Assembly: GCA_003154195.1 (NCBI GenBank)
Contig: PMCS01000031.1
Location: 18,054 to 82,053 of the forward strand
Length of the DNA stretch: 64,000 nt
DNA from: Candidatus Omnitrophota bacterium
GTDB lineage: Bacteria > Omnitrophota > Gorgyraeia > Duberdicusellales > 4484-171
Direction: 5' to 3'
Shown: piece by piece, positions 371 through 36,457 of the stretch
Numbering within the stretch: the first letter of the stretch is position 1
Layout of the letters: the number at the start of each line of letters is the position of its first letter
Notes under the pieces: model-generated
Seen by the model: only the letters and a program-made list of their open reading frames with translations
Databases searched by the model: none
Told to the model about the DNA's origin: nothing
Program-made: the position numbers and the translations under genes

Positions 371-883
371 TTAATTAGTAAAAAAATTGTCGTCGGCGAC
401 TACCGTATTGTCTATGCTATCGCCGTGAGCCGTAATGTAGTTCGCGTCCACATCATGCAGGGACGTATAATTCATCTTATTCACCTCTGCCGAAGCGCTG
501 TCAGTCCGGGAACCGGAAGTTACGGTTTGGTTGCCGCCAGTACGCGTGGTTACAGAAAAAGCATTATGAGACATAGTATCTTGTGCGTCCACTGCTACTC
601 CTGCGGCGGAGACGCCGTCCGCGTCGCCACCTATTTTGGCTATTGGACTGTTAGCATTAACGCCGGTACTCTCCGTAATCCCCGATGCTTCCGACACCAC
701 ACGTTGCTTAGTCGTTGTTTCCGTCGCGGAAAATTGTTCGCCCATCCTGCCGGCCGAATCTTTTAACTGCCCCTGGAAACCTCTCTTGACAAATACCTGC
801 ATAACCAGAATTGCCGCTACTACCACAGCGATCAACAAGGCATATTCTAAAATCGATTGCGCTTTTCTTGATTTTACCAACAT
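371..883 (-). CDS. Flp/Fap-family type IVb pilin with extended Ser/Thr-rich C-terminal domain
   Basis: ORF 371..928, trimmed to the internal Met (MLVKSRKAQSILEYALLIAVVVAAIL...). It has the Flp motif (basic leader, Q-S/G, xLEY, hydrophobic helix). An RBS GGAGGTGA lies upstream. Confidence 0.7.
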   Translation of the reverse strand: MLVKSRKAQSILEYALLIAVVVAAILVMQVFVKRGFQGQLKDSAGRMGEQFSATETTTKQRVVSEASGITESTGVNANSPIAKIGGDADGVSAAGVAVDAQDTMSHNAFSVTTRTGGNQTVTSGSRTDSASAEVNKMNYTSLHDVDANYITAHGDSIDNTVVADDNFFTN

Positions 884-1015
884 CCTTCTCACCTCCCTCA
901 ATGAGGCTTCACCGAACGCAAGTCCCACAAGGGACGCCGCGTGAGGTGGTCGCCGAATTTCCCGCCTATGGCGTGATCCCGCTTCCTTAGATATAATTAT
1001 TCAAGGAAGGCGGGA

Positions 1016-1077
1016 GACCCCGACGAGTATCGCAAAAATATCGAAGAGATTTTTGCGATAGTTTACGAGTCGGGGTA
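1016..1077 (-). promoter_or_regulatory. Two-tier conserved hairpin/palindromic motif upstream of a long Flp pilin (copy a)
   Basis: gaCCCCGACgagtATCGCAAAAATatcgaagagATTTTTGCGATagtttacgaGTCGGGGtac; it has inner 11-bp and outer 7-bp inverted repeats. Confidence 0.6.
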
Positions 1078-1108
1078 CGTTTCTCAAACATATTTTCAAT
1101 TAACGACC

Positions 1109-1215
1109 GGCCAGGGCAACGGTGATGATACCCGTATGGGTTAAGGTTATGGCTTTAAAATATTTTTTAAGCCTTAGCCTTTACCCAAACCGGCTTCTTA
1201 ACCCTAGCCTTAACC
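1109..1215. repeat. Palindromic intergenic repeat family A (TTAGGG-like arms), copy 1
   Basis: Left arm GGCCAGGGCAACGGTGATGA..., right arm ...CCAAACCGGCTTCTTAACCCTAGCCTTAACC. The arms are imperfect reverse complements. Confidence 0.65.
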
Positions 1216-1235
1216 ATTTTCACAATACCTGTCTC

Positions 1236-1691
1236 TTATAATTTGTAATCACTCACACCCAGGCTATAATCCGAGCTGGCGTTAAAATCTTCCGCCTCGA
1301 CGTTGTCGGTCTTGGACATTGACTTCACGGTTTGATTGCCGCCGGCTCTTTTCGTTACCGAATACGAACTCTTGCTCGGGTCGCCGGTAATCGTTCCTGC
1401 ATCGGTCACTCTCACCGCAGAGTCGACAAAGTTAGAAAAATTACCGTCCGTCGCTGTTTCTTCCACGATCTGCTGAACATCACCCGGAGTCATGTTGCTC
1501 GTCTGTAAAGTTTTCGTTCCGGTCGCGGAAAATTGCTCGCCCATCCTGCCGGAAGCATCTTTCAACTGCCCCTGAAAACCTCTCTTGACAAATACCTGCA
1601 TAATCAGGATTGCCGCCACCACTACGGCGATCAATAAGGCATATTCTAAGATTGACTGCGCTTTTTTTGATCTTACCAACATCCCTCTCAC
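1236..1691 (-). CDS. Flp-family pilin paralog (long form)
   Basis: MRGMLVRSKKAQSILEYALLIAVVVAAILIMQVFVKRGFQGQLKD... The N-terminal ~50 aa are near-identical to the 371..883 and 1995..2477 paralogs and the C-terminus is variable. Confidence 0.75.
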   Translation of the reverse strand: MRGMLVRSKKAQSILEYALLIAVVVAAILIMQVFVKRGFQGQLKDASGRMGEQFSATGTKTLQTSNMTPGDVQQIVEETATDGNFSNFVDSAVRVTDAGTITGDPSKSSYSVTKRAGGNQTVKSMSKTDNVEAEDFNASSDYSLGVSDYKL

Positions 1692-1757
1692 CCCCTCAAT
1701 GAGGCTTCACCGAACGCAAGTCCCACAAGGGACGCCGCGTGAGGCGGTAGCCGAATT

Positions 1758-1820
1758 GACCCCGACGAGTATCGCAAAAATATCGAAGAGATTTTTGCGA
1801 TAGTTTACGAGTCGGGGTAC
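1758..1820 (-). promoter_or_regulatory. Same hairpin motif (copy b)
   Basis: Near-identical to copy a, located upstream of 1236..1691. Confidence 0.6.
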
Positions 1821-1850
1821 GTTTCTCAAACATATTTTCAATTAACGACC

Positions 1851-1970
1851 GGCCAGGGTAACGGTGATGAGGCCGGTATGAGCTATGGTCAAGGTCATGG
1901 CTTTAAAATATTTTTTAAGCCTTAGCCATCACCTTTACCCAAACTGGCTTCTTAGCCTTAGCCTTAACCC
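1851..1970. repeat. Repeat family A, copy 2
   Basis: Same architecture; it lies between two pilin genes. Confidence 0.65.
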
Positions 1971-1994
1971 AGTATTTACAATACCGCCAACTTA

Positions 1995-2477
1995 CTAATT
2001 CATGTCGAACCTGGAATCAGGGCTATCACCGCCATTAGTGGGTCCGGTAAAATTCATTTTAAAATTTTCCTCGCTGGCCGAATCCGTGGCAGATGACGTA
2101 TTTACGCTTTGTGTGCCGCTGTCCCTGGCGCTTGCGGAATAAGCCCCCTTTTCCAAAACTCCCTCTCCGCTCACATCCCCCATAAGCCTTGGCGTATCTA
2201 TAGCCATGTTGCCGCCCCCCGCACGATCGCTAAAATTGTAATCGGTTGCCGTTTCATCTGTAACATTTTGCCCGGTACTGTTGGTGTGCTGCTTACTCGT
2301 CGAACCGCTGACAGAGAATTGCTCGCCCATCCGGTCGGAAGAGTCTTTTAACTGCCCCTGAAAACCTCTTTTGACAAATACCTGCATGATCAGGATCGCC
2401 GCCACGACCACAGCGATCAATAAAGCATATTCTAAGATTGATTGCGCTTTTTTTGATCTTACCAACATCCCTCTCAC
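1995..2477 (-). CDS. Flp-family pilin paralog (long form)
   Basis: MRGMLVRSKKAQSILEYALLIAVVVAAILIMQVFVKRGFQGQLKD..., with a variable Ser/Thr/Asn-rich C-terminus. Confidence 0.75.
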   Translation of the reverse strand: MRGMLVRSKKAQSILEYALLIAVVVAAILIMQVFVKRGFQGQLKDSSDRMGEQFSVSGSTSKQHTNSTGQNVTDETATDYNFSDRAGGGNMAIDTPRLMGDVSGEGVLEKGAYSASARDSGTQSVNTSSATDSASEENFKMNFTGPTNGGDSPDSRFDMN

Positions 2478-2491
2478 CCCCTCTTAAGAAT

Positions 2492-2611
2492 GGTTAGGGT
2501 AATGGTGATGAGGCCCGTGTGGGTTATGGTTAAGGTAAGGGCTTTAAAGAAATATTTTAAGCCCTAACCATTACCTTTACCCAAACCGGCTTCCTGGCCC
2601 TAGCCTTAACC
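2492..2611. repeat. Repeat family A, copy 3
   Basis: GGTTAGGGTAATGGTGATGAGGCCCGTGTGGGTTATGGTTAAGGTAAGGGC...GCCCTAACCATTACC...CCCTAGCCTTAACCC. Confidence 0.65.
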
Positions 2612-2643
2612 CAGTATTTATATACTGGCCTTACCCGATGAAA

Positions 2644-3084
2644 TCATTGACTCAAATTGCCCACACTGCCTAAAGTCTCTACTTCCACCGATGACGTGAT
2701 TGACGTCTGGTTCTGGATCTTTTCTTCGCCGCCGCCGCGATGCATGACGCTGGTGGAATCACTGCCGGTGATCTGGGTGTTGCGGTATTGCTGGTTGTAG
2801 ATAGAGATGTTGCTCGCAGTATCCCTTAGTCGAGATACCCCCCCTGGGGCCAAAGCATCGATAGCGTCGCCGCTAAAGTCGCTGGAAAGCGCCGACGCAC
2901 CCGCGCCATCCTCTATTCTTGCACCCACCGCAGCATGACCAAGCAAATCCACTGTCTGGGCGCCTTTTTTGCGCATCCCGGCTTTCAGCGCCGCGCCTAA
3001 GACTCCCGTGACCACCGCGATGATCAAGCCTAACGTAATCGCGTATTCCGCTGTTGACTGCGCTTTTCTTAATCTTACAAGCAT
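2644..3084 (-). CDS. Flp-family pilin paralog (long form, conserved C-terminal block)
   Basis: Trimmed to MLVRLRKAQSTAEYAITLGLIIAVVTGVLGAALKAGMRKKGAQTV. The C-terminal ~55 aa (NISIYNQQYRNTQI...VGNL) are shared with the 3844 and 4546 paralogs. Confidence 0.75.
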   Translation of the reverse strand: MLVRLRKAQSTAEYAITLGLIIAVVTGVLGAALKAGMRKKGAQTVDLLGHAAVGARIEDGAGASALSSDFSGDAIDALAPGGVSRLRDTASNISIYNQQYRNTQITGSDSTSVMHRGGGEEKIQNQTSITSSVEVETLGSVGNLSQ

Positions 3085-3187
3085 TATTGTCACCCCCTCA
3101 ATGAACACATTATTTTTTCCCCGCCCCAAGGCGGGACTCCGCTTACACTTCGCAAGCTGAAAGCGCAGAAAAAATAATAGTGTGAAT

Positions 3188-3250
3188 TGATCCCGACGAG
3201 TATCGCAAAAATATCAAAGAGATTTTTGCGATAGTTTACGAGTCGGGATA
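3188..3250 (-). promoter_or_regulatory. Same hairpin motif (copy c)
   Basis: gatCCCGACgagtATCGCAAAAATatcaaagagATTTTTGCGAT...GTCGGGatac, located upstream of 2644..3084. Confidence 0.6.
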
Positions 3251-3310
3251 CATTCAATTACATTTTCAATGAACCGCCACCGACTGAAGTCGATGGTTTT
3301 GGCATAAAAC

Positions 3311-3505
3311 TTACATACCGAAAACCCCCGCGGTCGCGTTATTGGCAGTTTTATTCATCGCCCCGATTACTTTGCTGTAAGTAGAGTTAACCGCCGACTG
3401 GAAACCGCCGGTACGAAACAAAATTACCATGATTACCGCGATAATCGCCGCTAAAAACAAGGTATATTCCAAAACTCCCTGCGCTTTTCTAAACCTTTTC
3501 ATCAT
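3311..3505 (-). CDS. Flp-family pilin, short (64 aa) canonical form
   Basis: MMKRFRKAQGVLEYTLFLAAIIAVIMVILF... This is the classic Flp G-VLEY motif, with the short length typical of Flp. Confidence 0.75.
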   Translation of the reverse strand: MMKRFRKAQGVLEYTLFLAAIIAVIMVILFRTGGFQSAVNSTYSKVIGAMNKTANNATAGVFGM

Positions 3506-3527
3506 TCTCCCCCCCCTTCTTTAAAAT

Positions 3528-3642
3528 GGCCAGGCAACGGTAATGATGCCCGTATGGGCTATGGCTAAGGTCGTGACTGTGAATTCGTATCAACCCTGAC
3601 CATTGCCTTAACCCAAACCGGCTTCCTAGCCCTAACCTTAAC
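3528..3642. repeat. Repeat family A, copy 4
   Basis: Same arms; the central part differs. Confidence 0.6.
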
Positions 3643-3843
3643 CAATCATTATTAAGGTATATTTTCACTCAGCCCCCGCTCCAGGGTAACAACAAACATC
3701 TTATCTTCTGGTTGCTTAAAGTTACAAAAGAATTATGTTTTTATGAAGGTAACCTTAAGCAATTTTCCGTAACTTGGGTAATCTTAAGTAACTTTTACCT
3801 TAAATCCCTGCCGGCTTCTTAACGCCGCCCTTAGCCGATGAAA

Positions 3844-4248
3844 TCATTGAGTCAAGTTGCCCACACTGCCTAAAGTCTCTACTTCCACCGATGACGTGCT
3901 TGATGTCTGGTTCTGGATCTTTTCTTCGCCGCCGCCGCGATGCATGACGCTGGTGGAATCACTGGCGCTGATCTGGGTGTTACGGTACTGCTGGTTGTAG
4001 ATAGAGATGTTGCCGGCGGAGGAGCTTAAAACAACGCCTCCCGAGTCGCCTACCGAGCTTACCGCAATACCAGTACCATCTTCCTTCTCCACCCCGGAAC
4101 CCCCCAACAACTCCACTGTCTGGGCGCCTTTTTTGCGCATCCCGGCTTTCAGGGCCGCGCCTAAGACTCCCGTGACCACCGCGATGATCAAGCCTAAGGT
4201 AATCGCGTATTCCGCTGTTGACTGCGCTTTTCTTAACCTTACCAACAT
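3844..4248 (-). CDS. Flp-family pilin paralog (long form)
   Basis: Trimmed to MLVRLRKAQSTAEY.... The N- and C-terminal blocks are near-identical at nucleotide level to 2644..3084 and 4546..4959, with a divergent middle. Confidence 0.75.
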   Translation of the reverse strand: MLVRLRKAQSTAEYAITLGLIIAVVTGVLGAALKAGMRKKGAQTVELLGGSGVEKEDGTGIAVSSVGDSGGVVLSSSAGNISIYNQQYRNTQISASDSTSVMHRGGGEEKIQNQTSSTSSVEVETLGSVGNLTQ

Positions 4249-4320
4249 CCTTCTCACCCCCTCAATGAGACTTGGCCGAGCGCGCATGCTGCGCATGTGC
4301 AGCGAGGCCGTAGTCGAATT

Positions 4321-4383
4321 GACTCCGGCGAATGTCCTAAAAATATCGAAGAGATTTTCAGGACGGCTTATGAGCCGGAGTAC
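4321..4383 (-). promoter_or_regulatory. Same hairpin motif with compensatory substitutions (copy d)
   Basis: gaCTCCGGCgaatGTCCTAAAAATatcgaagagATTTTCAGGACggcttatgaGCCGGAGtac. Both stems are changed but base pairing is preserved. Confidence 0.6.
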
Positions 4384-4392
4384 ATTAAAAAT

Positions 4393-4540
4393 GGCCAGGG
4401 TAATGGTAATGAGGCCCGTATGGGTTATGGTTAAGGCTGTAAATTCGTATCAGCCCTGACCCTTGCCTTAGCCTAAACCGGCTTCTTAACCCTAACCTTA
4501 ACCTTTTTTCAATACGGGCTTCCTAGCCCTAACCTTAACC
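4393..4540. repeat. Repeat family A, copy 5 (with duplicated right arm)
   Basis: The right arm ...CCTAACCTTAACC occurs twice in tandem. Confidence 0.6.
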
Positions 4541-4545
4541 AATCA

Positions 4546-4959
4546 TCACTCGGTCAAGCAGCCCACACTGCCTAAAGTCTCTACTTCCACCGATGACGTG
4601 CTTGATGTCTGGTTCTGGATCTTTTCTTCGCCGCCGCCGCGATGCATGACGCTGGTGGAATCACTGCCGGTGATCTGGGTGTTACGGTACTGCTGGTTGT
4701 AGATAGAGATGTTGCCGCCGCCGGCTAAATGAATGCCGTTGGTGTTAGTGTCGAGGCCCTCAGCGAGCGCTCGATCGCCGCTATCATCGCCGGTAGCGGC
4801 ATCTTTAAGCAAATCCACTGTCTGGGCGCCTTTTTTGCGCATCCCGGCTTTCAGGGCCGCGCCTAAGACTCCCGTGACCACTGCGATGATCAAGCCTAAA
4901 GTGATCGCGTATTCCGCTGTTGACTGTGCTTTTCTTAACCTTACCAACATCCTTCTCAC
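4546..4959 (-). CDS. Flp-family pilin paralog (long form)
   Basis: MRRMLVRLRKAQSTAEYAITLGLIIAVVTGVLGAALKAGMRKKGAQTVDLL..., with a conserved C-terminal block. Confidence 0.75.
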   Translation of the reverse strand: MRRMLVRLRKAQSTAEYAITLGLIIAVVTGVLGAALKAGMRKKGAQTVDLLKDAATGDDSGDRALAEGLDTNTNGIHLAGGGNISIYNQQYRNTQITGSDSTSVMHRGGGEEKIQNQTSSTSSVEVETLGSVGCLTE

Positions 4960-5020
4960 CCCCTCAATGAGCGCATTATTTTTGAAGCGTTACTATGCTT
5001 CAAAAATAATAGCGCGAATT

Positions 5021-5083
5021 GACCCCGGCGAATGTTCAAAAATTATCGAAGAGAATTTTTGAACGGCTTATGAGCCGGGGTAC
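5021..5083 (-). promoter_or_regulatory. Same hairpin motif with compensatory substitutions (copy e)
   Basis: gaCCCCGGCgaatGTTCAAAAATtatcgaagagaATTTTTGAACggcttatgaGCCGGGGtac. Confidence 0.6.
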
Positions 5084-5113
5084 GTTTCTCAAACATATTC
5101 TCAACTAACGACC

Positions 5114-5322
5114 GGCCCGGGCAATGGTAATGCTCTCCTTCGCTCTTCGAGCTTCGGAGAAGTCTCGCCGAAACCTAGCCATCAAATATGGCTAGGTTTC
5201 GCCTATAAGGCGAACTTCAGCGAAGGCGGAATGCCGGTATGGGTTATGGTTAAGGCTGTAAATTCGTATCAGCCCTGACCCTCGCCTTAGCCTAAACCGG
5301 CTTCTTAACCCTAACCTTAACC
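5114..5322. repeat. Repeat family A, copy 6 with nested GC-rich insertion
   Basis: A inserted module ctccttcgctcttcgagcttcggagaagtctcgccgaa plus a perfect hairpin acctagccatcaaatatggctaggt sits inside the A element. Confidence 0.6.
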
Positions 5323-5363
5323 GAACATTATCCCAATGAACCCCCGTTCATCTGCTGCAAAAC

Positions 5364-5558
5364 TTATTGCGAGAAAACTTCCTTAGTCATCTTATCGGTA
5401 GTATTCCCCATCGCCCCTATTACCTTGCCGTAAGTGGCGTCAAGCGATGTCTGCAAGCCGCCCCTACGGAATAAAATAACCATGGTTACCGCGATAATCG
5501 CCGCTAAAAATAAGGTATATTCCAAAACTCCCTGCGCTTTTCTTAATCTTACCAGCAT
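5364..5558 (-). CDS. Flp-family pilin, short (64 aa)
   Basis: MLVRLRKAQGVLEYTLFLAAIIAVTMVILF..., a paralog of 3311..3505. Confidence 0.75.
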   Translation of the reverse strand: MLVRLRKAQGVLEYTLFLAAIIAVTMVILFRRGGLQTSLDATYGKVIGAMGNTTDKMTKEVFSQ

Positions 5559-5569
5559 CCTTCTCCCCT

Positions 5570-5719
5570 TTATTTCTTATACTCCAACTGCTCCTGGATC
5601 TGTTTTAACTTAGCATTCATCGACCGGGTGATGTATTTATGGGCTATCATCATTGCCGCCATAATCACCACAATCAACATCGCGTAATCCAGCATGCCTT
5701 GCGCTTTTGTTTTTTTCAT
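5570..5719 (-). CDS. Flp-like pilin, divergent short form
   Basis: ORF 5570..5803 trimmed to MKKTKAQGMLDYAMLIVVIMAAMMIAHKY.... Its start codon overlaps the stop of the upstream gene (ATGA). Confidence 0.55.
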   Translation of the reverse strand: MKKTKAQGMLDYAMLIVVIMAAMMIAHKYITRSMNAKLKQIQEQLEYKK

Positions 5720-6310: not shown

Positions 6311-7753
6311 TTAAAGAAGAAAAATTCTCTTATTATCCAAATAAAATCCTTCTTTATTAAAAGCATCTTTGAGGGTGCGGGAAATATCTTTTACGATTAT
6401 CTTATAAAAGTTCTTGCCGACGGCCAGGTAACCGGCCGCGTCGGGCGACGATGCCGCCGTCGGTACCGGCGGCGCCGGCATTTTGCGGTTGAACGCGGCG
6501 GCTAAAATATTTTTAATCTCGATAAAATCCTCCGCTTTAGCGAGGGGAATTTTTTTCGCCGGCATTGGGTAATCGGCGATCCCGGGCGCCGGGCTGCCTT
6601 TAAAAAAATTTTCAAATATTTCCAGGTCATCCGGGAATTTTTTTTCCGGAAACGGCCAGAAATATAAATAGTTGCCCAGTAAAGGCAGAAAATCTTTCCG
6701 GTCCGTCATAAAACACCATACGGGAAGGGCCTTTTTCTTGCGAAAAACCGGAATATTATTGACGATAATACCCCGGCTGTCTTTATCCCGGGAGAACCTG
6801 GCTAAAGCGGAAGCGTAAAAAAAATCCTGCCCCGCCGGAGAAGGTATTTTTTTAATTCTTGTTTGCCGGCTTAAATAAGCGGCACCCTGGGATAAAAATC
6901 TGGGATGATAACCGACAAAAAAAGAAGTTTTGACGGGCGCGGGAAAAGATATTTTTTCCCACGCTTCGCCGGCAGGGCTGAGGAATTCTATTTCTTTTAC
7001 GCCCTTCGTCAAGCCGTTTAAAAAATCCAAAGCTAAGGGCGAAAGATAACCGAAACTTTTCGTATAATTTACCAGAACGGCCTTTGCCGAAAGCATCCGG
7101 GTGATGATTTCTTTCGCCCGCGTTAACGGTGCGCTAAAATTTCCCATCGGGCAATCGCCCCGCCAAAACGTCGTCATCGCGGCGTCGCAATAAGAAACCG
7201 CGCCGCCCTCAAAATAAAATTTTATCGTCCTTGTTTCTTTGCGGGTTTCTTTAAATCCCGCTAAATCTAATTGGAGGTTTGCCGCCGGCAGGGTTTTTAA
7301 AAATTCGTTTATTTTGCCCAGGGACAGATGGCCAAGCCCGGCTGCCCGTAAGAATCCCCGGGCCGCGATATTTTCTTTCAGGCCCAGAGCGGGAACCCGG
7401 AAAACCAGTAAACCGGTGATCTTGCGCAGGAGGTCTTCCTCGAACTGAGGGAAAAACGGCTTGAGGGAAGAAACTGCGTAATCAATAAGGCCGAACTTTG
7501 AATCGAAGCCGCGCAGGAGGAGGGGAAAACAATCATAGTTTTCCCCTTTTTTATAAAGGGTAATCGATTTTTTGCGCCCCTTCCTTTCTTTTACGCCGCG
7601 AGAAGAAAAAATATTCTGGATTGAACTTTTGGAGAGCTTGATCTTGTGTTTTTCGTCTAAAAACCGGGACAACGCCCTTACCCCCAGATAAGGGTTTTTC
7701 TTTCTTGCGCTGATGATTAAACTACGCACCCGCGGATTTATCTTGGCCCGCAC
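6311..7753 (-). CDS. Hypothetical 480-aa protein with N-terminal helix-turn-helix-like segment
   Basis: The N-terminus NPYLGVRALSRFLDEKHKIKLSKSSIQNIF looks HTH-like and the rest is unrecognised. It sits between the tad ATPase and the pilin array. Domain fold and function are not assignable from sequence alone. Confidence 0.3.
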   Translation of the reverse strand: MRAKINPRVRSLIISARKKNPYLGVRALSRFLDEKHKIKLSKSSIQNIFSSRGVKERKGRKKSITLYKKGENYDCFPLLLRGFDSKFGLIDYAVSSLKPFFPQFEEDLLRKITGLLVFRVPALGLKENIAARGFLRAAGLGHLSLGKINEFLKTLPAANLQLDLAGFKETRKETRTIKFYFEGGAVSYCDAAMTTFWRGDCPMGNFSAPLTRAKEIITRMLSAKAVLVNYTKSFGYLSPLALDFLNGLTKGVKEIEFLSPAGEAWEKISFPAPVKTSFFVGYHPRFLSQGAAYLSRQTRIKKIPSPAGQDFFYASALARFSRDKDSRGIIVNNIPVFRKKKALPVWCFMTDRKDFLPLLGNYLYFWPFPEKKFPDDLEIFENFFKGSPAPGIADYPMPAKKIPLAKAEDFIEIKNILAAAFNRKMPAPPVPTAASSPDAAGYLAVGKNFYKIIVKDISRTLKDAFNKEGFYLDNKRIFLL

Positions 7754-14843: not shown

Positions 14844-15257
14844 TTATTCTTTAATTTTCAGTATAATTTCAATATGGTCGGTATTAATAATGGTATTATG
14901 GACGGGGCAATTCTGGATAAACCTTAAAAAAACTTCGTTTTCCTCGCGGGAAAGCTTAGCGTCACAAAAAGTCTCTACCTTTATATTAACGAGCCGGGCC
15001 GGGCTGCTGGATGTAAATTCAGCTCCGGCTTTTATTTTAAGCTCTTTAAAATCTTTGGCGTGCGTCGTTAAATACCTTTTCGCGTAGACCCCGACGCAGG
15101 ACGCCAGCGAAGAAAGAAATAATTCCAAAGGGTCGGGGCCGGCGGGAACATAGTTTTCGCTTTTCTTGTCGGAATAAAAATTTACCCCGCTGGCTTGCGC
15201 CGCTATTGCGAATTTATCTTTTTCCCAAAAAGTAACCTCTACCGTCCGCGTTTCCAT
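14844..15257 (-). CDS. OsmC/Ohr-family peroxiredoxin-like protein
   Basis: PDPLELFLSSLASCVGVYAKRYL has the OsmC conserved Cys motif. Confidence 0.65.
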   Translation of the reverse strand: METRTVEVTFWEKDKFAIAAQASGVNFYSDKKSENYVPAGPDPLELFLSSLASCVGVYAKRYLTTHAKDFKELKIKAGAEFTSSSPARLVNIKVETFCDAKLSREENEVFLRFIQNCPVHNTIINTDHIEIILKIKE

Positions 15258-15327: not shown

Positions 15328-15478
15328 CACCCTAACCATTGCCTTAACCCAAACCGGCTTTCCGCCTTCGCCAAGGCTTCGGCAAGATTTCTCCGAAGCT
15401 CGAAGAGCGAAGGAGAACTTCGGCGAGACTTCTCCGAAGCTCGAAGAGCGAAGGAGAGCGTAACCCTGACCTTAACCC
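15328..15478. repeat. Repeat family A partial copy with the same inserted module duplicated
   Basis: accctaaccattgccttaacccaaaccggc..., then two tandem copies of cttctccgaagctcgaagagcgaaggaga, then ccctgaccttaaccc. Confidence 0.55.
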
Positions 15479-15501: not shown

Positions 15502-17181
15502 TTATTTTTTCTCTGCCCGCTCTATCTTCGCCCACGTATCTCTTAAAGTAACCGTGCGGTTAAACACGGGCTTACCCGGCAAAGAATCTTTAGGGTCGGC
15601 AAAAAAATAGCCCAGGCGTTCGAATTGAAACCGGCTGCCCGGCGCGGCGGTTTTAAGGCCCGGCTCCAAACACGCCTTTTCGATAACTTCCCGGGATTGA
15701 GGATTAAGATTAACTTTATAGTCGACACCTTCGGCCACATCATCGGGGTTGCGTATGTTAAACAGGTTATCATATAAGCGGACCGGTGCGTTAATCGCAT
15801 GCGCCGCCGAAACCCAGTGGATGGTCCCCTTGACTTTTCTTCTGTCGGGCGCGTCGCCGCCGCGGGTCGCCGGGTCATAGGTACAACGTACTTCCACGAT
15901 ATCGCCTTTTTCATTTTTTATAACCTCGCGGCAGGTAATAAAGTACGCATAACGCAGGCGGACTTCCTGCCCCGGAGCGAGCCGGAAAAATTTCGCCGGC
16001 GGGTGTTCGCGAAAATCATCCTGTTCGATATAGAGCATCCGGGAAAACGGCACCTTGCGGGTTCCCGCGGACGCGTCTTCCGGGTTGTTCACCGCGTCTA
16101 ATTCCTCAATCTGGTTTTCGGGATAATTGGTAATCAATATTTTCAACGGCTTCAATACAGCCATTGCCCGCGGCGCGGTTTTGTTTAATTCTTCACGCAG
16201 GGAATTTTCCAGCACCACCAAATCGATAATACTGTTGAATTTGGCGACGCCGATGGTTTCGCAAAAACCGCGGATCGCCGAAGCAGTGTACCCCCGGCGG
16301 CGCAATCCCGAAAGAGTAGGCATCCGGGGGTCATCCCAGCCGTCCACGTAACGGCCATTGACCAGCTCCAGTAATTTGCGCTTGCTTAATACCGTATGGC
16401 TTAAATTAAGCCGGGCGAATTCAATCTGCCGCGGATGATAGACGCCCAATTCCTGCAAAAACCAATCATAGAGCGGCCGGTGGTTTTCAAATTCCAGAGT
16501 GCAGATCGAATGGGTAATGCCTTCCAAGGAATCTTCAATGCCGTGCGCCCAGTCGTACATCGGATAGATACACCATTTATCGCCGGTGCGATGGTGCGTG
16601 GCGCGCAAAATCCGGTAAAGCACCGGGTCGCGCATGTTCAAATTCGGGTGATTCATATCTATTTTAGCCCGCAGGACCTTTGAACCGTCGGGGAATTCGC
16701 CGACGCGCATGCGCCGGAATAAATCAAGGTTTTCTTCAAGCGAACGACTGCGATAAGGGCTTTCTTTACCGGGTTGGGTCAACGTACCGCGATATTGACG
16801 GATTTGTTCCGAAGTCAAATCGCATACGTATGCCTTGCCTTTTTTAATCAGCTGTTCGGCGTACTCATACATCGGCGCGAAATAATCCGAAGCGTAAAAA
16901 AGCCTCTCCTGCCAATCGGCGCCCAGCCATCTTACGTCTTCGATGATCGAATCAACATATTCCTGCTCTTCTTTGCTGGGATTGGTATCGTCAAAACGCA
17001 GGTTGAACTTCCCCTGATAGTCGCGGGCAATGCCGTAATTGAGGCAGATCGATTTGGCGTGGCCGATATGCAGATAGCCGTTAGGCTCGGGCGGAAAACG
17101 CGTATGCACCCGTCCGGAAAACTTAGCCGTTTTCAGATCTTCCTCAACAATCTCGCGTACAAAATTAATGGGGACAGACAC
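15502..17181 (-). CDS. glnS: Glutaminyl-tRNA synthetase
   Basis: [24 protein letters not shown] (HIGH motif), VLSKRKL (KMSKS-like motif) and ~560 aa with a GlnRS-type anticodon-binding C-terminus. Confidence 0.85.
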
Positions 17182-34308: not shown

Positions 34309-34457
34309 AATCGATAATTTATTTTATCCTGTAGGGGCGAGGCATGCCTCGCCCTCTAACTTATGCTGGTTACGACATTTATCTTTTATTTTAGAGGGCC
34401 GGACATGCCCGGCACCTACAAGGTTATAGAAATTATTATTCCATATATGGATAAATA

Positions 34458-35066
34458 TTATTTCCTATCGCCGAAGTGCCTACCTATATACACATCCATC
34501 AGCCGGAGCGTCTCTTCCTTGCACTGCCCGCAAACCGTGCCGATTTTGGTTTTTTCCTGCAGGCTTAGATAAGAGCGCGCGCCTTCCAGCACCGCCTCTT
34601 CGATTTCATGGTCAGTAACGTTCATGCACTGGCAAACGATGCGCGCTTCTTCTTTGGTAATCTTATCTTCCATCCCGTTTTTGCGGTAATAATCGTTGAT
34701 TGCGGCGCGCAAGGCTTTATCGCCCAGAACCGAGCAATGAATCTTATGCTCCGGCAAACCGCCTAATTCCTTAGCCACGTCTTTAGGCGTCAGATGATAA
34801 GCCTGCTCGATCGACATCCCCTTGACCATCTCCGACATCACCGATGTGCTGGCAATCGCCGAAGCGCAGCCATAAGTCTTCCATTTACAATCGGTAAGGA
34901 TTTGCTTTTCTTTATCTACCTTGATTACCACCATCATCTGGTCCCCGCACTTGATATTGCCCACAATCCCCTTGCCGTCGGCGGGATAACTTTTTTCATC
35001 GGTCAGCACATTGCGCGGGTTCATAAAATGGTCTTTTACTTTGTCGGTATATAACCAATCGCTCAT
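34458..35066 (-). CDS. nifU: NifU-like Fe-S cluster scaffold (IscU-type N-domain + BFD-like 2Fe-2S domain)
   Basis: YTDKVKDHFMNPRNV...GNIKCGDQM...CKWKTYGCASAIASTS...HCSVLGDKAL, then CQCMNVTDHEIE...GTVCGQCK. Confidence 0.8.
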   Translation of the reverse strand: MSDWLYTDKVKDHFMNPRNVLTDEKSYPADGKGIVGNIKCGDQMMVVIKVDKEKQILTDCKWKTYGCASAIASTSVMSEMVKGMSIEQAYHLTPKDVAKELGGLPEHKIHCSVLGDKALRAAINDYYRKNGMEDKITKEEARIVCQCMNVTDHEIEEAVLEGARSYLSLQEKTKIGTVCGQCKEETLRLMDVYIGRHFGDRK

Positions 35067-35124: not shown

Positions 35125-35241
35125 GGTTAGGGTAAGGGTAAGGATGCCAGTATAGGTTAGGGTTAAGGTACGGGCTAAAAATTGGTTTGAACCCTAACCA
35201 TTACCATAACCCAAACCGGCTTCCTAACCCTAGCCTTAGCC
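35125..35241. repeat. Repeat family A, copy 8
   Basis: GGTTAGGGTAAGGGTAAGG...GGTTAGGGTTAAGG...CCCTAACCATTACCATAACCCAAACCGGCTTCCTAACCCTAGCCTTAGCC. Confidence 0.65.
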
Positions 35242-35272
35242 GATTAAAACATTTATCTCTACTTTCTACTCG

Positions 35273-36457
35273 CTACTTCTTACTATACGCCGTCGAAATA
35301 CTCCTCACTCTTTTCACCACCTGCGCCATCTTGGCTACCGTATAATCGACATCCTTTTCAGTATTATCCCGGCCCAAGCTCATCCGTATCGAGCTATGGG
35401 CGAATTCCGCGGCTAAACCGATCGCCAGAAGCACATGCGAAGGGTCAAGCGAGCCCGACGCGCAGGCCGAGCCGGTGGAAACAGCAATCCCTTCCATATC
35501 AAGATATAGAAGAATCGCCTCGCCTTCCGTACCCTCAAATGAAACATTCAAAGTTCCGGGCAAACAATCGGTGGGATGGCCGTTGAACTTAATATCGGGG
35601 ATATTTTTTTCGATGCCGGCTTTAAGCCGCGCTTTTAATTGTAAAAGTTTCTTTGTCTCGGTAAGCATTTCGGACTTGCGCATTTCCACCGCTTTGGCGA
35701 AGCCGATGATACCCAGCGTGTTTTCCGTGCCGGCGCGCCGGCCCCTTTCCTGATGGCCGCCGTGGATATAAGGACAGAAGGGAACGCCTTTTTTAACATA
35801 GATCGCGCCGACACCTTTGGGCCCATAAATCTTATGGCCGGAAAAGGTCAAAAAATCAACATCTAATTCACGCACATCAATAGGGATTTTCCCTACCGCC
35901 TGCACCGCATCGGTATGAAACAAAGCATCCTTAGCATGAACCATTTTCGCGATAGTTTTAATGTCCTGAATCGTGCCGATCTCGTTATTGGCGGTCATCA
36001 CCGAAACCAGGCCGGTTTTATCGCTAATGACATGCCCTAAATTATCCAAGTCAAGTTTACCGTCTTTATCCACTCTTAAAGTGGAAACACAAGTTCCCTT
36101 ATCCCGCAAACACTTCGATGATTCTAAAACGCAAGGGTGCTCGATAGTCGTCGTCATCACATCTTTACGGCTGAAACAGGAACATTCGTGGCTTTTTGAA
36201 CTGCAGGAAAAAATCGAAAGGACAGTGTTGTTGGCTTCCGAGCCGGAACCGGTAAAAATAATCTCTTCCGGCTTAGCGTTGATGAACGCGGCAATATCCT
36301 GGCGCGCCACTTCGATTTTGGCGCGCGCTTCCCGGCCCAGCCGGTGCAAACTCGAAGGGTTGCCGTACATCTCAAAAGCCTCGCTAAGCGCTTTTTTAAC
36401 TTCGGGATGAAGCGGCGTCGTGGCGTTATGGTCTAAGTAAACTGTTCTATCGGACAT
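35273..36457 (-). CDS. nifS: Cysteine desulfurase NifS/IscS family
   Basis: VYLDHNATTP, SGGSEANN-like (TGSGSEANN) and the SGHK PLP-lysine motif, with Cys in the C-terminal loop (SACASGS). It contains a short Cys/Ser-rich insertion (SIFSCSSKSHECSCFS). Confidence 0.85.
   Translation of the reverse strand: MSDRTVYLDHNATTPLHPEVKKALSEAFEMYGNPSSLHRLGREARAKIEVARQDIAAFINAKPEEIIFTGSGSEANNTVLSIFSCSSKSHECSCFSRKDVMTTTIEHPCVLESSKCLRDKGTCVSTLRVDKDGKLDLDNLGHVISDKTGLVSVMTANNEIGTIQDIKTIAKMVHAKDALFHTDAVQAVGKIPIDVRELDVDFLTFSGHKIYGPKGVGAIYVKKGVPFCPYIHGGHQERGRRAGTENTLGIIGFAKAVEMRKSEMLTETKKLLQLKARLKAGIEKNIPDIKFNGHPTDCLPGTLNVSFEGTEGEAILLYLDMEGIAVSTGSACASGSLDPSHVLLAIGLAAEFAHSSIRMSLGRDNTEKDVDYTVAKMAQVVKRVRSISTAYSKK

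Follow-up and report, generated by a model that had tools for sequence, protein, structure and literature searches.

The sequences known as REP (for repetitive extragenic palindromic) are stem-loops of 20-40 bp with an unpaired GTAG/CGTC at one end, and a REPIN consists of two inverted units with a spacer (PMC3116915, PMC3733652). The hairpins of REP, ERIC and Correia repeats are reported to affect mRNA stability or to undergo processing by RNase III or RNase E (PMC3733652, PMC2229807), and effects of such repeats at the RNA level are also described in a further source (PMC2649163). The subject of the present analysis is a palindromic element of ~115 nucleotides (nt) that recurs in a 64,000-nt stretch of DNA from a Candidatus Omnitrophota bacterium (GenBank assembly GCA_003154195.1, contig PMCS01000031.1, positions 18,054-82,053; the whole stretch is hereafter the window) and is concentrated between the genes of a pilin array. 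The element probably represents a new family of non-autonomous, REP/REPIN- or ERIC/Correia-like palindromic repeats that was gained in this Omnitrophota lineage and amplified together with the pilin cassettes, with a transcribed hairpin that probably modulates mRNA stability or read-through.

The likeness to the REP and REPIN repeats of E. coli and Pseudomonas is broad, as judged from genome and metagenome scans that retrieved ~170 loci in all (designated by L-numbers, e.g. L088) and at least 126 distinct copies, this being the count among the matches listed (hereafter the 126 listed copies). The element is extragenic, palindromic and present in many copies, with two conserved inverted regions and a variable spacer in a hairpin of ~100 nt. 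It is found inside operons or between convergent genes (orientation relative to the flanking genes, among the metagenome matches listed: ++ 19 and -- 17, together 36, convergent 10 versus divergent 8, which is near random; a weaker sense bias is seen among the genome-scan copies). Clusters, half copies, persistence at orthologous sites and the insertion of other small elements are further shared features. However, the element has neither a GTAG nor a CGTC tag, its units are 105-125 nt long, and its arms are hexamer arrays of 45-50 nt rather than the self-folding stem-loops of 20-40 nt that characterise REP sequences. No RAYT gene flanked by the element, as in a REPIN-RAYT system, was found among the retrieved loci. 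Whereas REPINs are vertically inherited within lineages, the core of the element is common to three phylum-level labels, and compensatory changes, which the REPIN paper reports as common, find no counterpart in it.

Compared with the ERIC/IRU repeats of enterobacteria (127 bp) and the Correia/NEMIS repeats of Neisseria (107/155 bp), the element is likewise a non-coding unit of 100-150 nt that forms an imperfect inverted repeat over its whole length, occurs at sites that are filled or empty between relatives, and has short and long forms that differ by an internal insert. ERIC and Correia repeats are co-transcribed with flanking genes as long stem-loops, and this is the model for the RNA effect inferred here. 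In contrast to them, the element shows no TA termini or target-site duplications that could be detected, is not A+T-rich and has a hexamer periodicity, and neither an IHF site nor an outward promoter was identified in it. At less than 200 bp, non-coding and with terminal inverted repeats, it has the size and form of a miniature inverted-repeat transposable element (MITE), and an atypical MITE that also lacks TA termini, is not A+T-rich and inserts beside dyad symmetry is known in the 168-bp YPAL/RU-2 repeat of Yersinia (PMC2229807). YPAL, however, makes target duplications of 3-26 bp, none of which are seen for the element, and the two sequences are unrelated. The element is accordingly regarded as a new family of the REPIN and ERIC/Correia kind that is without the REP tag and without the TA termini and target duplications of MITEs; its unusual traits are a GG ladder of period 6 and a core common to phylum-level labels.

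Copies of the element in the window

A pattern for the right arm (CCGGYTTCYTRRCCYTARCCTTAACC, up to 3 mismatches) gave 8 matches in the window and none in 100 dinucleotide-preserving shuffles. A covariance model (R1), built from six window copies and 15 foreign copies with a hand-made symmetric structure, recovered seven full copies, all on the minus (gene) strand, at 60-106 bits (E 1e-15 to 4e-28). A repeat search at strict settings missed the elements because of their many mismatches. The copies, including half copies and fragments, are as follows.

1110-1216, minus strand: c1, full copy; R1 91.2 bits, E 8.6e-24; RNA fold -44.5 kcal/mol, z -6.1; begins 20 nt past the stop codon of pilin gene 1236-1691, with the second hairpin motif (described below) next.
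1852-1970, minus strand: c2, full copy; R1 96.1 bits; begins 25 nt past the stop codon of pilin gene 1995-2477.
2493-2612, minus strand: c3, full copy; R1 105.1 bits, E 9e-28; RNA fold -46.5 kcal/mol; begins 32 nt past the stop codon of pilin gene 2644-3084 and abuts the ribosome-binding site of gene 1995-2477.
3528-3644, minus strand: c4, full copy; R1 94.1 bits; fold -47.2 kcal/mol; upstream of the 64-residue pilin gene 3311-3505.
~3790-3843, minus strand: degenerate 5' half copy (GGCTAAGGGCGGCGTTAAGAAGCCGGCAGGG...), read from the sequence, directly past the stop codon of pilin gene 3844-4248; no R1 match.
4394-4504, minus strand: c5, full copy; R1 95.4 bits.
4506-4540, minus strand: extra 5' half copy upstream of c5; pattern match at 4515-4540; 6 nt past the stop codon of pilin gene 4546-4959.
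5114-5323, minus strand: c6, full copy with the 3' arm interrupted by a 99-nt insert; R1 59.7 bits for 5214-5323; begins 41 nt past the stop codon of the 64-residue pilin gene 5364-5558.
15328-15478, minus strand: c7, 5' half only, split by a 99-nt insert; between a glnS-like gene (15502-17181) and an OsmC-like gene (14844-15257), both by Pfam.
35126-35242, minus strand: c8, full copy; R1 106.3 bits, E 4.3e-28; RNA fold -55.1 kcal/mol, z -7.4.

The initial annotation had listed eight copies, and its coordinates agree with the seven full copies to within 1-3 nt. Its eighth (15328-15478) consists of a 5' half and an insert and is without loop or 3' arm, and the interval 4393-4540, which it took for one copy, holds the full copy c5 and the additional half copy beside it. 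The array copies begin 6-42 nt past a pilin stop codon. A position upstream of the next hairpin motif, proposed for all six of them, applies to four (c1, c2, c5 and c6), whereas c3 and c4 are followed by the ribosome-binding site of the next gene, their 3' ends standing 16 and 22 nt, respectively, ahead of its start codon. Outside the array, c8 is found between the co-oriented minus-strand open reading frames (ORFs) 35273-36457 and 34458-35066, which are putatively nifS/iscS-like and nifU/iscU-like, respectively, judging from their position and translations.

Architecture and folding

Read on the gene strand, the element is an interrupted hairpin composed of about three GGYWAN hexamers, GAAGCC, GGTTTR, two to four further hexamers and a short apex, the second half being an imperfect reverse complement of the first. 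The two arms consist of GGYWAN hexamers in series about an invariant 15-nt core, GGAAGCCGGTTTRGG, and the ends of the element read GGTTAAGG...CCYTAACC. Unit lengths extend over a wider range of 102-145 nt and GC fractions from 0.37 to 0.56; the apex is specific to each family or lineage, and the core is common to all lineages. GG recurs every 6 nt across seven hexamers in the 126 listed copies, and the program TRF detects period-6 arrays in three of the arms. The repeating unit is GGYWAN and not the TTAGGG-type hexamer first described, and the telomere likeness is coincidental, being a by-product of this unit. Five perfect TTAGGG repeats, the only exact telomere likeness, occur in the 5' arm of one foreign copy (L130, ~700-850), where a three-tetrad G-quadruplex would be possible.

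In the folded element GG pairs with CC, A at hexamer position 5 pairs with T/U, and position 3 is paired in most copies; positions 4 and 6 are mostly mismatched (W against W or N against N). Beside an invariant GCC/GGC triplet, two 1x1 mismatches are kept in the 126 listed copies. As RNA, the window copies have predicted minimum free energies (MFE) of -39 to -58 kcal/mol (z -2.3 to -7.9 against mononucleotide shuffles), both strands alike. The values are -35 to -57 kcal/mol for 12 foreign representatives with apices of unrelated sequence, and each representative is predicted to adopt one long hairpin. As single-stranded DNA, the window copies reach -15 to -24 kcal/mol (z -0.7 to -3.5), and their best fold is not in every case the long hairpin. 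The forward strand outscores the reverse strand by 25-40 bits under R1 in every copy, which indicates that the element has polarity. A strand test on G-U versus A-C counts gave 399 versus 294, a difference too small to decide the strand. RNAalifold returned no consensus hairpin from a MAFFT alignment because the apices cannot be aligned, and the manual symmetric structure was used in its place. Pattern, R1 and folding agree that the family of imperfect inverted repeats is genuine.

A dispersed family in three phylum-level groups

The genome scan, with the pattern GGNTARGAAGCCGGTTTRGG and one genome per GTDB species, yielded 57 stretches, ~47 of them with a whole hairpin, from five Bacteroidota bins, about nine Deltaproteobacteria/Syntrophaceae bins and one Roizmanbacteria metagenome-assembled genome (MAG) with a partial copy. 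At least 110 stretches came from the metagenome scan, in which R1 confirmed at least ~70 further copies. The 126 listed copies derive from MAGs and metagenomes labelled Bacteroidota, Desulfobacterota/Syntrophaceae and Omnitrophota, and single MAGs carry many of them: copies are present on at least 12 contigs of one Deltaproteobacteria bin, and one Bacteroidota bin has at least nine loci, tandem triplets included. Two Bacteroidota MAG contigs (L031, 2-343; L040, 1-313) each have three head-to-tail copies, 12-17 nt apart, as in BIME-like clusters. The outer modules are lineage-specific, and the repeated unit is ~240 nt in Bacteroidota and ~215 nt in one lake metagenome.

All copies are intergenic, and their neighbours are ordinary genes (ftsZ-gatB/yqeY, lpxB-msbA, rplJ-rplL, a sigma factor gene and apt, and genes of acyl-CoA enzymes). 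The element is therefore dispersed, as had been proposed, both within the window (c7, c8) and in other organisms, and its local concentration in the pilin array is also borne out. A general tie to pilins is not: only six of the 126 listed copies, all from this array, have a Flp-like ORF within 600 nt, and the other 120 are at unrelated genes. The core does not occur in 2.9 million viral contigs, and a plasmid search with c3 gave no match. A literature search by core sequence returned nothing relevant, and such repeats are not mentioned in the Omnitrophota genome papers found.

Gain in the lineage and amplification with the pilin genes

Comparison with relatives, and of the array with itself, demonstrates that the dispersed element was gained in this lineage and multiplied in the array by block duplication. 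Four Tad loci of related Omnitrophota, with TadA 60-62% identical, have tightly packed pilin arrays in which no copy occurs. A filled site is found in an Omnitrophota contig with a window-type copy (L088; RpoB 83% identical to proteins named Omnitrophota), the metagenome accession of which shares a series with that of the Stordalen Mire sample containing the window contig and is believed to belong to the same project. Its rplJ-rplL spacer of 165 nt holds a full copy and a half copy; in a complete Omnitrophota genome (L180) the spacer is 27 nt long and empty. The same spacer in another Omnitrophota (L178, 2730-2834) contains an unrelated 85-nt palindrome, GAAGCGGATTACCGCGGAT...ATCCGCGTAAATCAGCTTC, and the rplJ-rplL spacer seems to collect hairpins.

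Within the array, block 717-1229 is ~89-90% identical to 1516-1985, element included (88.6% for the sub-blocks 1016-1229, with c1, and 1758-1985, with c2), block 2484-2813 (c3) is 81.9% identical to 4385-4715 (c5), and block 3789-4386 is 78% identical to 4493-5086, a pair that links the half copies at ~3790-3843 and 4506-4540. Since the element rides in these tandemly duplicated blocks, its enrichment in the array is largely explained and targeted placement is not needed. Block duplication also accounts for the uniform sense orientation in the array; all window copies are in one orientation, but this reflects only ~3-4 independent events. Copies c5 and c6 are 97.8% identical over 90 nt of the element alone while their flanks are unrelated, which points to element-specific copying or gene conversion. 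Over 30 nt, the half copy 4506-4540 has 100% identity with 3620-3649, which comprises the 5' end of c4 and adjoining flank.

In the history proposed here, one or a few copies would have landed in the Flp-pilin array of the Tad locus, and tandem duplication of blocks comprising pilin gene, element and 5' hairpin would have multiplied them passively, with some element-only copying or gene conversion besides (c5, c6). The resulting 110-nt homology tracts may ease unequal recombination between cassettes. Strings of same-strand genes around all window copies, together with the abutment of c3 and c4 on ribosome-binding sites, suggest that the element is transcribed within the polycistronic pilin mRNA; between c3 or c4 and the next gene there is no space for a promoter, and transcription must therefore read through both copies. 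In this mRNA the element would fold to an interrupted hairpin with a stem of ~45-50 nt per arm, which most likely acts as a block to 3'-5' exonucleases, as a site where RNA polymerase pauses or partly terminates, or as a processing site for double-strand-specific RNases. Each of these effects would uncouple the mRNA levels of neighbouring pilin cistrons, after the model of REP, ERIC and Correia repeats.

Several observations weigh against this account of a mobile repeat with an effect on mRNA. No consistent target-site duplication or TA terminus is found around the window copies or 60 foreign copies, and transposition is consequently deduced from filled and empty sites alone. No transposase or recombinase linked to the element was found, and clustering of all ORFs of at least 120 residues near copies revealed no recurrent mobile-DNA protein or other protein family. 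The uniform orientation in the window could mean that the element has an orientation-dependent role here. Between orthologous Desulfobacterota sites, identity is 90-97% over the element compared with 63-88% over the flanks, which are mostly coding, and this better conservation indicates selection or homogenisation among copies and is unlike purely neutral junk; the contrast is in part an ascertainment effect, because the search pattern forced 20 nt to be identical. Finally, the RNA-level effect of the hairpin is inferred by analogy with the known repeats.

A more far-reaching proposal, and a rather doubtful one, is that the 15-nt core, the fixed mismatches across three phylum labels and the high conservation at orthologous sites mark a long-lived, cross-phylum partnership between repeat and enzyme of the REPIN-RAYT type, perhaps co-opted here for the expression or shuffling of pilin paralogues. 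The partner might be a Y1-DnaA_C protein, some other enzyme encoded in single copy, or a protein oligomer that recognises the GG ladder of period 6. Y1_Tnp is absent from the window, and phmmer searches of the ORFs of the ~170 loci (queries: an approximate E. coli RAYT sequence and the Y1-DnaA_C protein of L176) detected three Y1 loci, in none of which the gene adjoins the element. The Y1 genes in L015, L138, L142, L174 and L176 are 2-10 kb away from or not adjoining the element, or have other flanking repeats.

In or beside the related Omnitrophota Tad loci there are genes for Y1_Tnp plus DnaA_C (IS200-like) proteins (L176, 20250-21650; L174, 21675-22172; L015, 636-1596). The gene in L176 is accompanied by repeats of its own, with TGAATAGTGGGGTCAGGTCTCAAGATTTGA upstream in three direct copies and inverted copies to either side, in a REPtron/TIRtron-like arrangement. 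ORFs between inverted weak matches in L026 were also considered and rejected, as they encode a large ATPase and not a transposase.

Alternative interpretations

The best surviving alternative, though an unlikely one, is that the element is a DNA binding array, in which the GGYWAN hexamers and the near-palindrome AAGCCGGTTT are sites for a nucleoid-associated, gyrase-like or domesticated-transposase protein and the hairpin is secondary. Such sites would agree with the conservation of hexamer positions 1, 2, 3 and 5 alongside free variation of positions 4 and 6 (W or N), even at the cost of pairing, with the invariance of the core across phyla, and with the better conservation of the element than of flanking coding DNA at orthologous sites. 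Its orientation is also indifferent to transcription and shows no clear tie to GC skew (44 versus 28, p = 0.08, with copies that are not independent). However, no candidate protein is linked in cis, a period of 6 bp is unlike the helical repeat of DNA, and the copies within a family decay without evident constraint.

It is somewhat less probable that the element is a purpose-built cis-regulatory RNA of the pilin genes, whether terminator, insulator, translational switch or small RNA. The placement of all array copies in sense, shortly past stop codons, and the strength of the RNA hairpins are what such a role would lead one to expect, as is the predicted pairing at c3 and c4, where the outer 3' arm (CAUCAYYA..CCCU) pairs with the Shine-Dalgarno sequence (SD) and AUG of the next pilin gene instead of with its own 5' arm. 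This is the predicted MFE structure in the 201-nt contexts of both copies (c3, 2450-2650; c4, 3480-3680; minus strand), and at c4 the alternative pairing joins CAUCAUU to AAUGAUG; the pairing might affect translation, or G-rich SD regions might be complementary by chance. Against a pilin-specific RNA stand the 120 of 126 listed copies at unrelated genes, in both orientations, the pilin arrays of relatives without the element, and the sense orientation that follows from block duplication.

Nor was a sign of selection found on the structured RNA that had been suggested. Compensatory changes are at the level of shuffles both between families (13 pairs with double changes versus 12.6) and within one family of 26 copies (1 double change versus 0.7 expected), in which single substitutions break pairs without compensation. 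The terminator role that had also been put forward finds no support in the array, which contains no intrinsic terminator (stem plus T-run), the 3' flanks of the element being GGTCGTTAATTG or ATTTTAAAG. Rfam release 15 gave no match at the gathering threshold over the whole window, and only sub-threshold miRNA-precursor hairpins (E up to 10). Neither a sigma-54 nor a sigma-70 promoter was seen inside the element by eye or by scan; a sigma-70-like TTGAGA-N16-TAAACT occurs only downstream, in the second hairpin motif. To our knowledge TRAP-, HutP- and CsrA-type binding arrays fit neither the period nor the motif, and their proteins are not expected in these taxa, and they were dropped.

In Neisseria, pilin variation involves a G-quadruplex (G4) upstream of pilE and the Sma/Cla repeat. 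An analogous role for the element, as a programmed hotspot at which G-rich or alternative DNA structures would promote shuffling of pilin cassettes in the manner of pilE/pilS, has an equally low probability. The likeness lies in G-rich or repeated non-coding DNA beside pilin paralogues with conserved N- and C-termini and variable middles, and it extends to the coincidence of duplicated-block boundaries with elements, to half copies at junctions and to the near-identity of c5 and c6 despite unrelated flanks. However, a search for canonical G4 motifs (four runs of at least three G, with loops of 1-7 or up to 12 nt) found none in the window copies and none in the window, where only GG-type, two-tetrad motifs occur; the G-quadruplex prediction that the initial annotation proposed for the G-rich arm is to this extent negative. 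The pilin genes of the array are all complete, with start codon and signal peptide, and are not silent cassettes. Comparison of strains, suggested as a test for presence/absence polymorphism, showed no variation: in the portions of the array that they cover, six independent assemblies of the population are 100% identical (c7 has one single-nucleotide polymorphism among five assemblies of the same population). Nor is the element specific to pilins, since it stands between housekeeping genes elsewhere.

A reading of the array as integron-like cassettes, each a pilin gene with a folded recombination site of the attC type, is close to refuted. One imperfect palindrome of similar length (105-125 nt) follows each gene in the same orientation, mismatched bases are conserved when it is folded, and two loci (L075, L139) have single genes between two direct copies; but the order of the motifs is reversed (GTTA...TAAC and not RYYYAAC...GTTRRRY), there is no integrase and no tyrosine recombinase recurs near copies, and copies are found in either orientation inside core operons (rplJ-rplL, lpxB-msbA), their orientation elsewhere being random. 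Small protein-coding genes, with arms read as (V/A)(K/R/M) repeats such as MVKARVKKPVWVKAKA, codon-like hexamer variation (GYW ADG) and an ATG before the arm in c1 and in Bacteroidota copies, are rejected, since the variant GGTTTAGG places an in-frame stop in c5, c6 and whole subfamilies, which refutes the coding reading, many copies have no start codon, and the frame runs for 9-17 codons before it closes, at differing positions, in the loop.

Implications for annotation

Having set these alternatives beside the preferred account of a dispersed palindromic repeat amplified with the pilin cassettes, "telomere-like" hairpins of this type should be annotated as a repeat family and not be mistaken for pilin-specific regulators. 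The covariance model and the 20-nt diagnostic core are tools for an uncatalogued repeat of uncultured anaerobes (Omnitrophota, Syntrophales-like Desulfobacterota and Bacteroidota). Such families can serve as strain markers, explain assembly breakpoints and provide natural experiments on selfish palindromes wired into operon expression. In the pilin array, the repeat is carried along as surface-protein genes expand in tandem, a process that it possibly eases, and the lineage is one thought to rely on Tad pili for contact with a host. The conservation of the core across phyla raises the question of which protein recognises it, and a cognate protein or an effect on the expression of the pilin paralogues, if shown, would raise the interest of the family.

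The pilin array and its organism

The source of the window is a Candidatus Omnitrophota population from Stordalen Mire, and the contig is found again at 100% identity in several WOOD18, JGI, NCBI and Logan assemblies. Homologs of its TadA with 55-65% identity are all named Omnitrophota, by which the organism is assigned to this group. The array (371-5713) consists of Flp-type pilin genes of three paralogue families, with the N-terminal motif KAQS(I/T)(L/A)EY and weak Pfam matches to Flp_Fap. Genes for tadA, a secretin and rcpC stand upstream, and every gene in this part of the window is on the minus strand. Between tadA and the array, an ORF of 480 residues (6311-7753, minus strand) has weak N-terminal matches to HTH_32 and HTH_Tnp_Tc3_2 and may encode a Tad-locus regulator or a domesticated protein of transposase-like type; in the related locus L176 the equivalent position is taken by an ORF of 509 residues without Pfam matches.

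A second, near-perfect palindrome (CCCCGACGAGTATCGCAAAAATATCGAAGAGATTTTTGCGATAG..CGAGTCGGGG), unrelated to the element, is located just upstream of five pilin genes and is probably a true pilin 5' leader or promoter module. It overlaps the sigma-70-like sequence TTGAGA-N16-TAAACT in two of the copies listed here.

1016-1104: second hairpin motif, upstream of a pilin gene.
1758-1846: second hairpin motif, upstream of a pilin gene.
3184-3274: second hairpin motif, upstream of a pilin gene.
4321-4386: second hairpin motif, upstream of a pilin gene.
5021-5100: second hairpin motif, upstream of a pilin gene.

Nested insert and other small repeats

The modular character ascribed to the family is evident in the 99-nt GC-rich insert that two copies (c6, c7) carry.

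5132-5230, minus strand: nested insert in the 3' arm of c6; termini GCTCTCC...GAAGGCGGA.
15362-15460: nested insert in the 5' half of c7, carrying the GC-rich module twice.

Both inserts occupy an equivalent site, GGTWAN|insert|ANGCCGG, and have the termini GCTCTCC...GAAGGCGGA in common; from these sequence features, the insert seems to be a second small element that targets the first. The GC-rich module of 25 nt reported earlier is confirmed at 5135-5159 (minus strand) and, as a duplicate in c7, at 15391-15415 and 15432-15456 (both plus strand); it has no match in the loci of other organisms.

In addition to the element, the window contains a classic GTAG-type REP doublet at 34314-34436 (TGTAGGGGCGAGGCATGCCTCGCCCTCTAA and an inverted partner), directly downstream of the ORF 34458-35066, which indicates that the genome carries ordinary REP/REPIN-like repeats too. 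A GTAG REP sequence (GTAGGGAACGGTTTCAAACCGTTCCCTAC) is nested in the apex of three foreign copies (L096, L111 and L130), and GTAGGGAACGGTTTCAAACCGTTCCCTAC is also found at positions 180-215 of L138, where it follows a RAYT-like gene.

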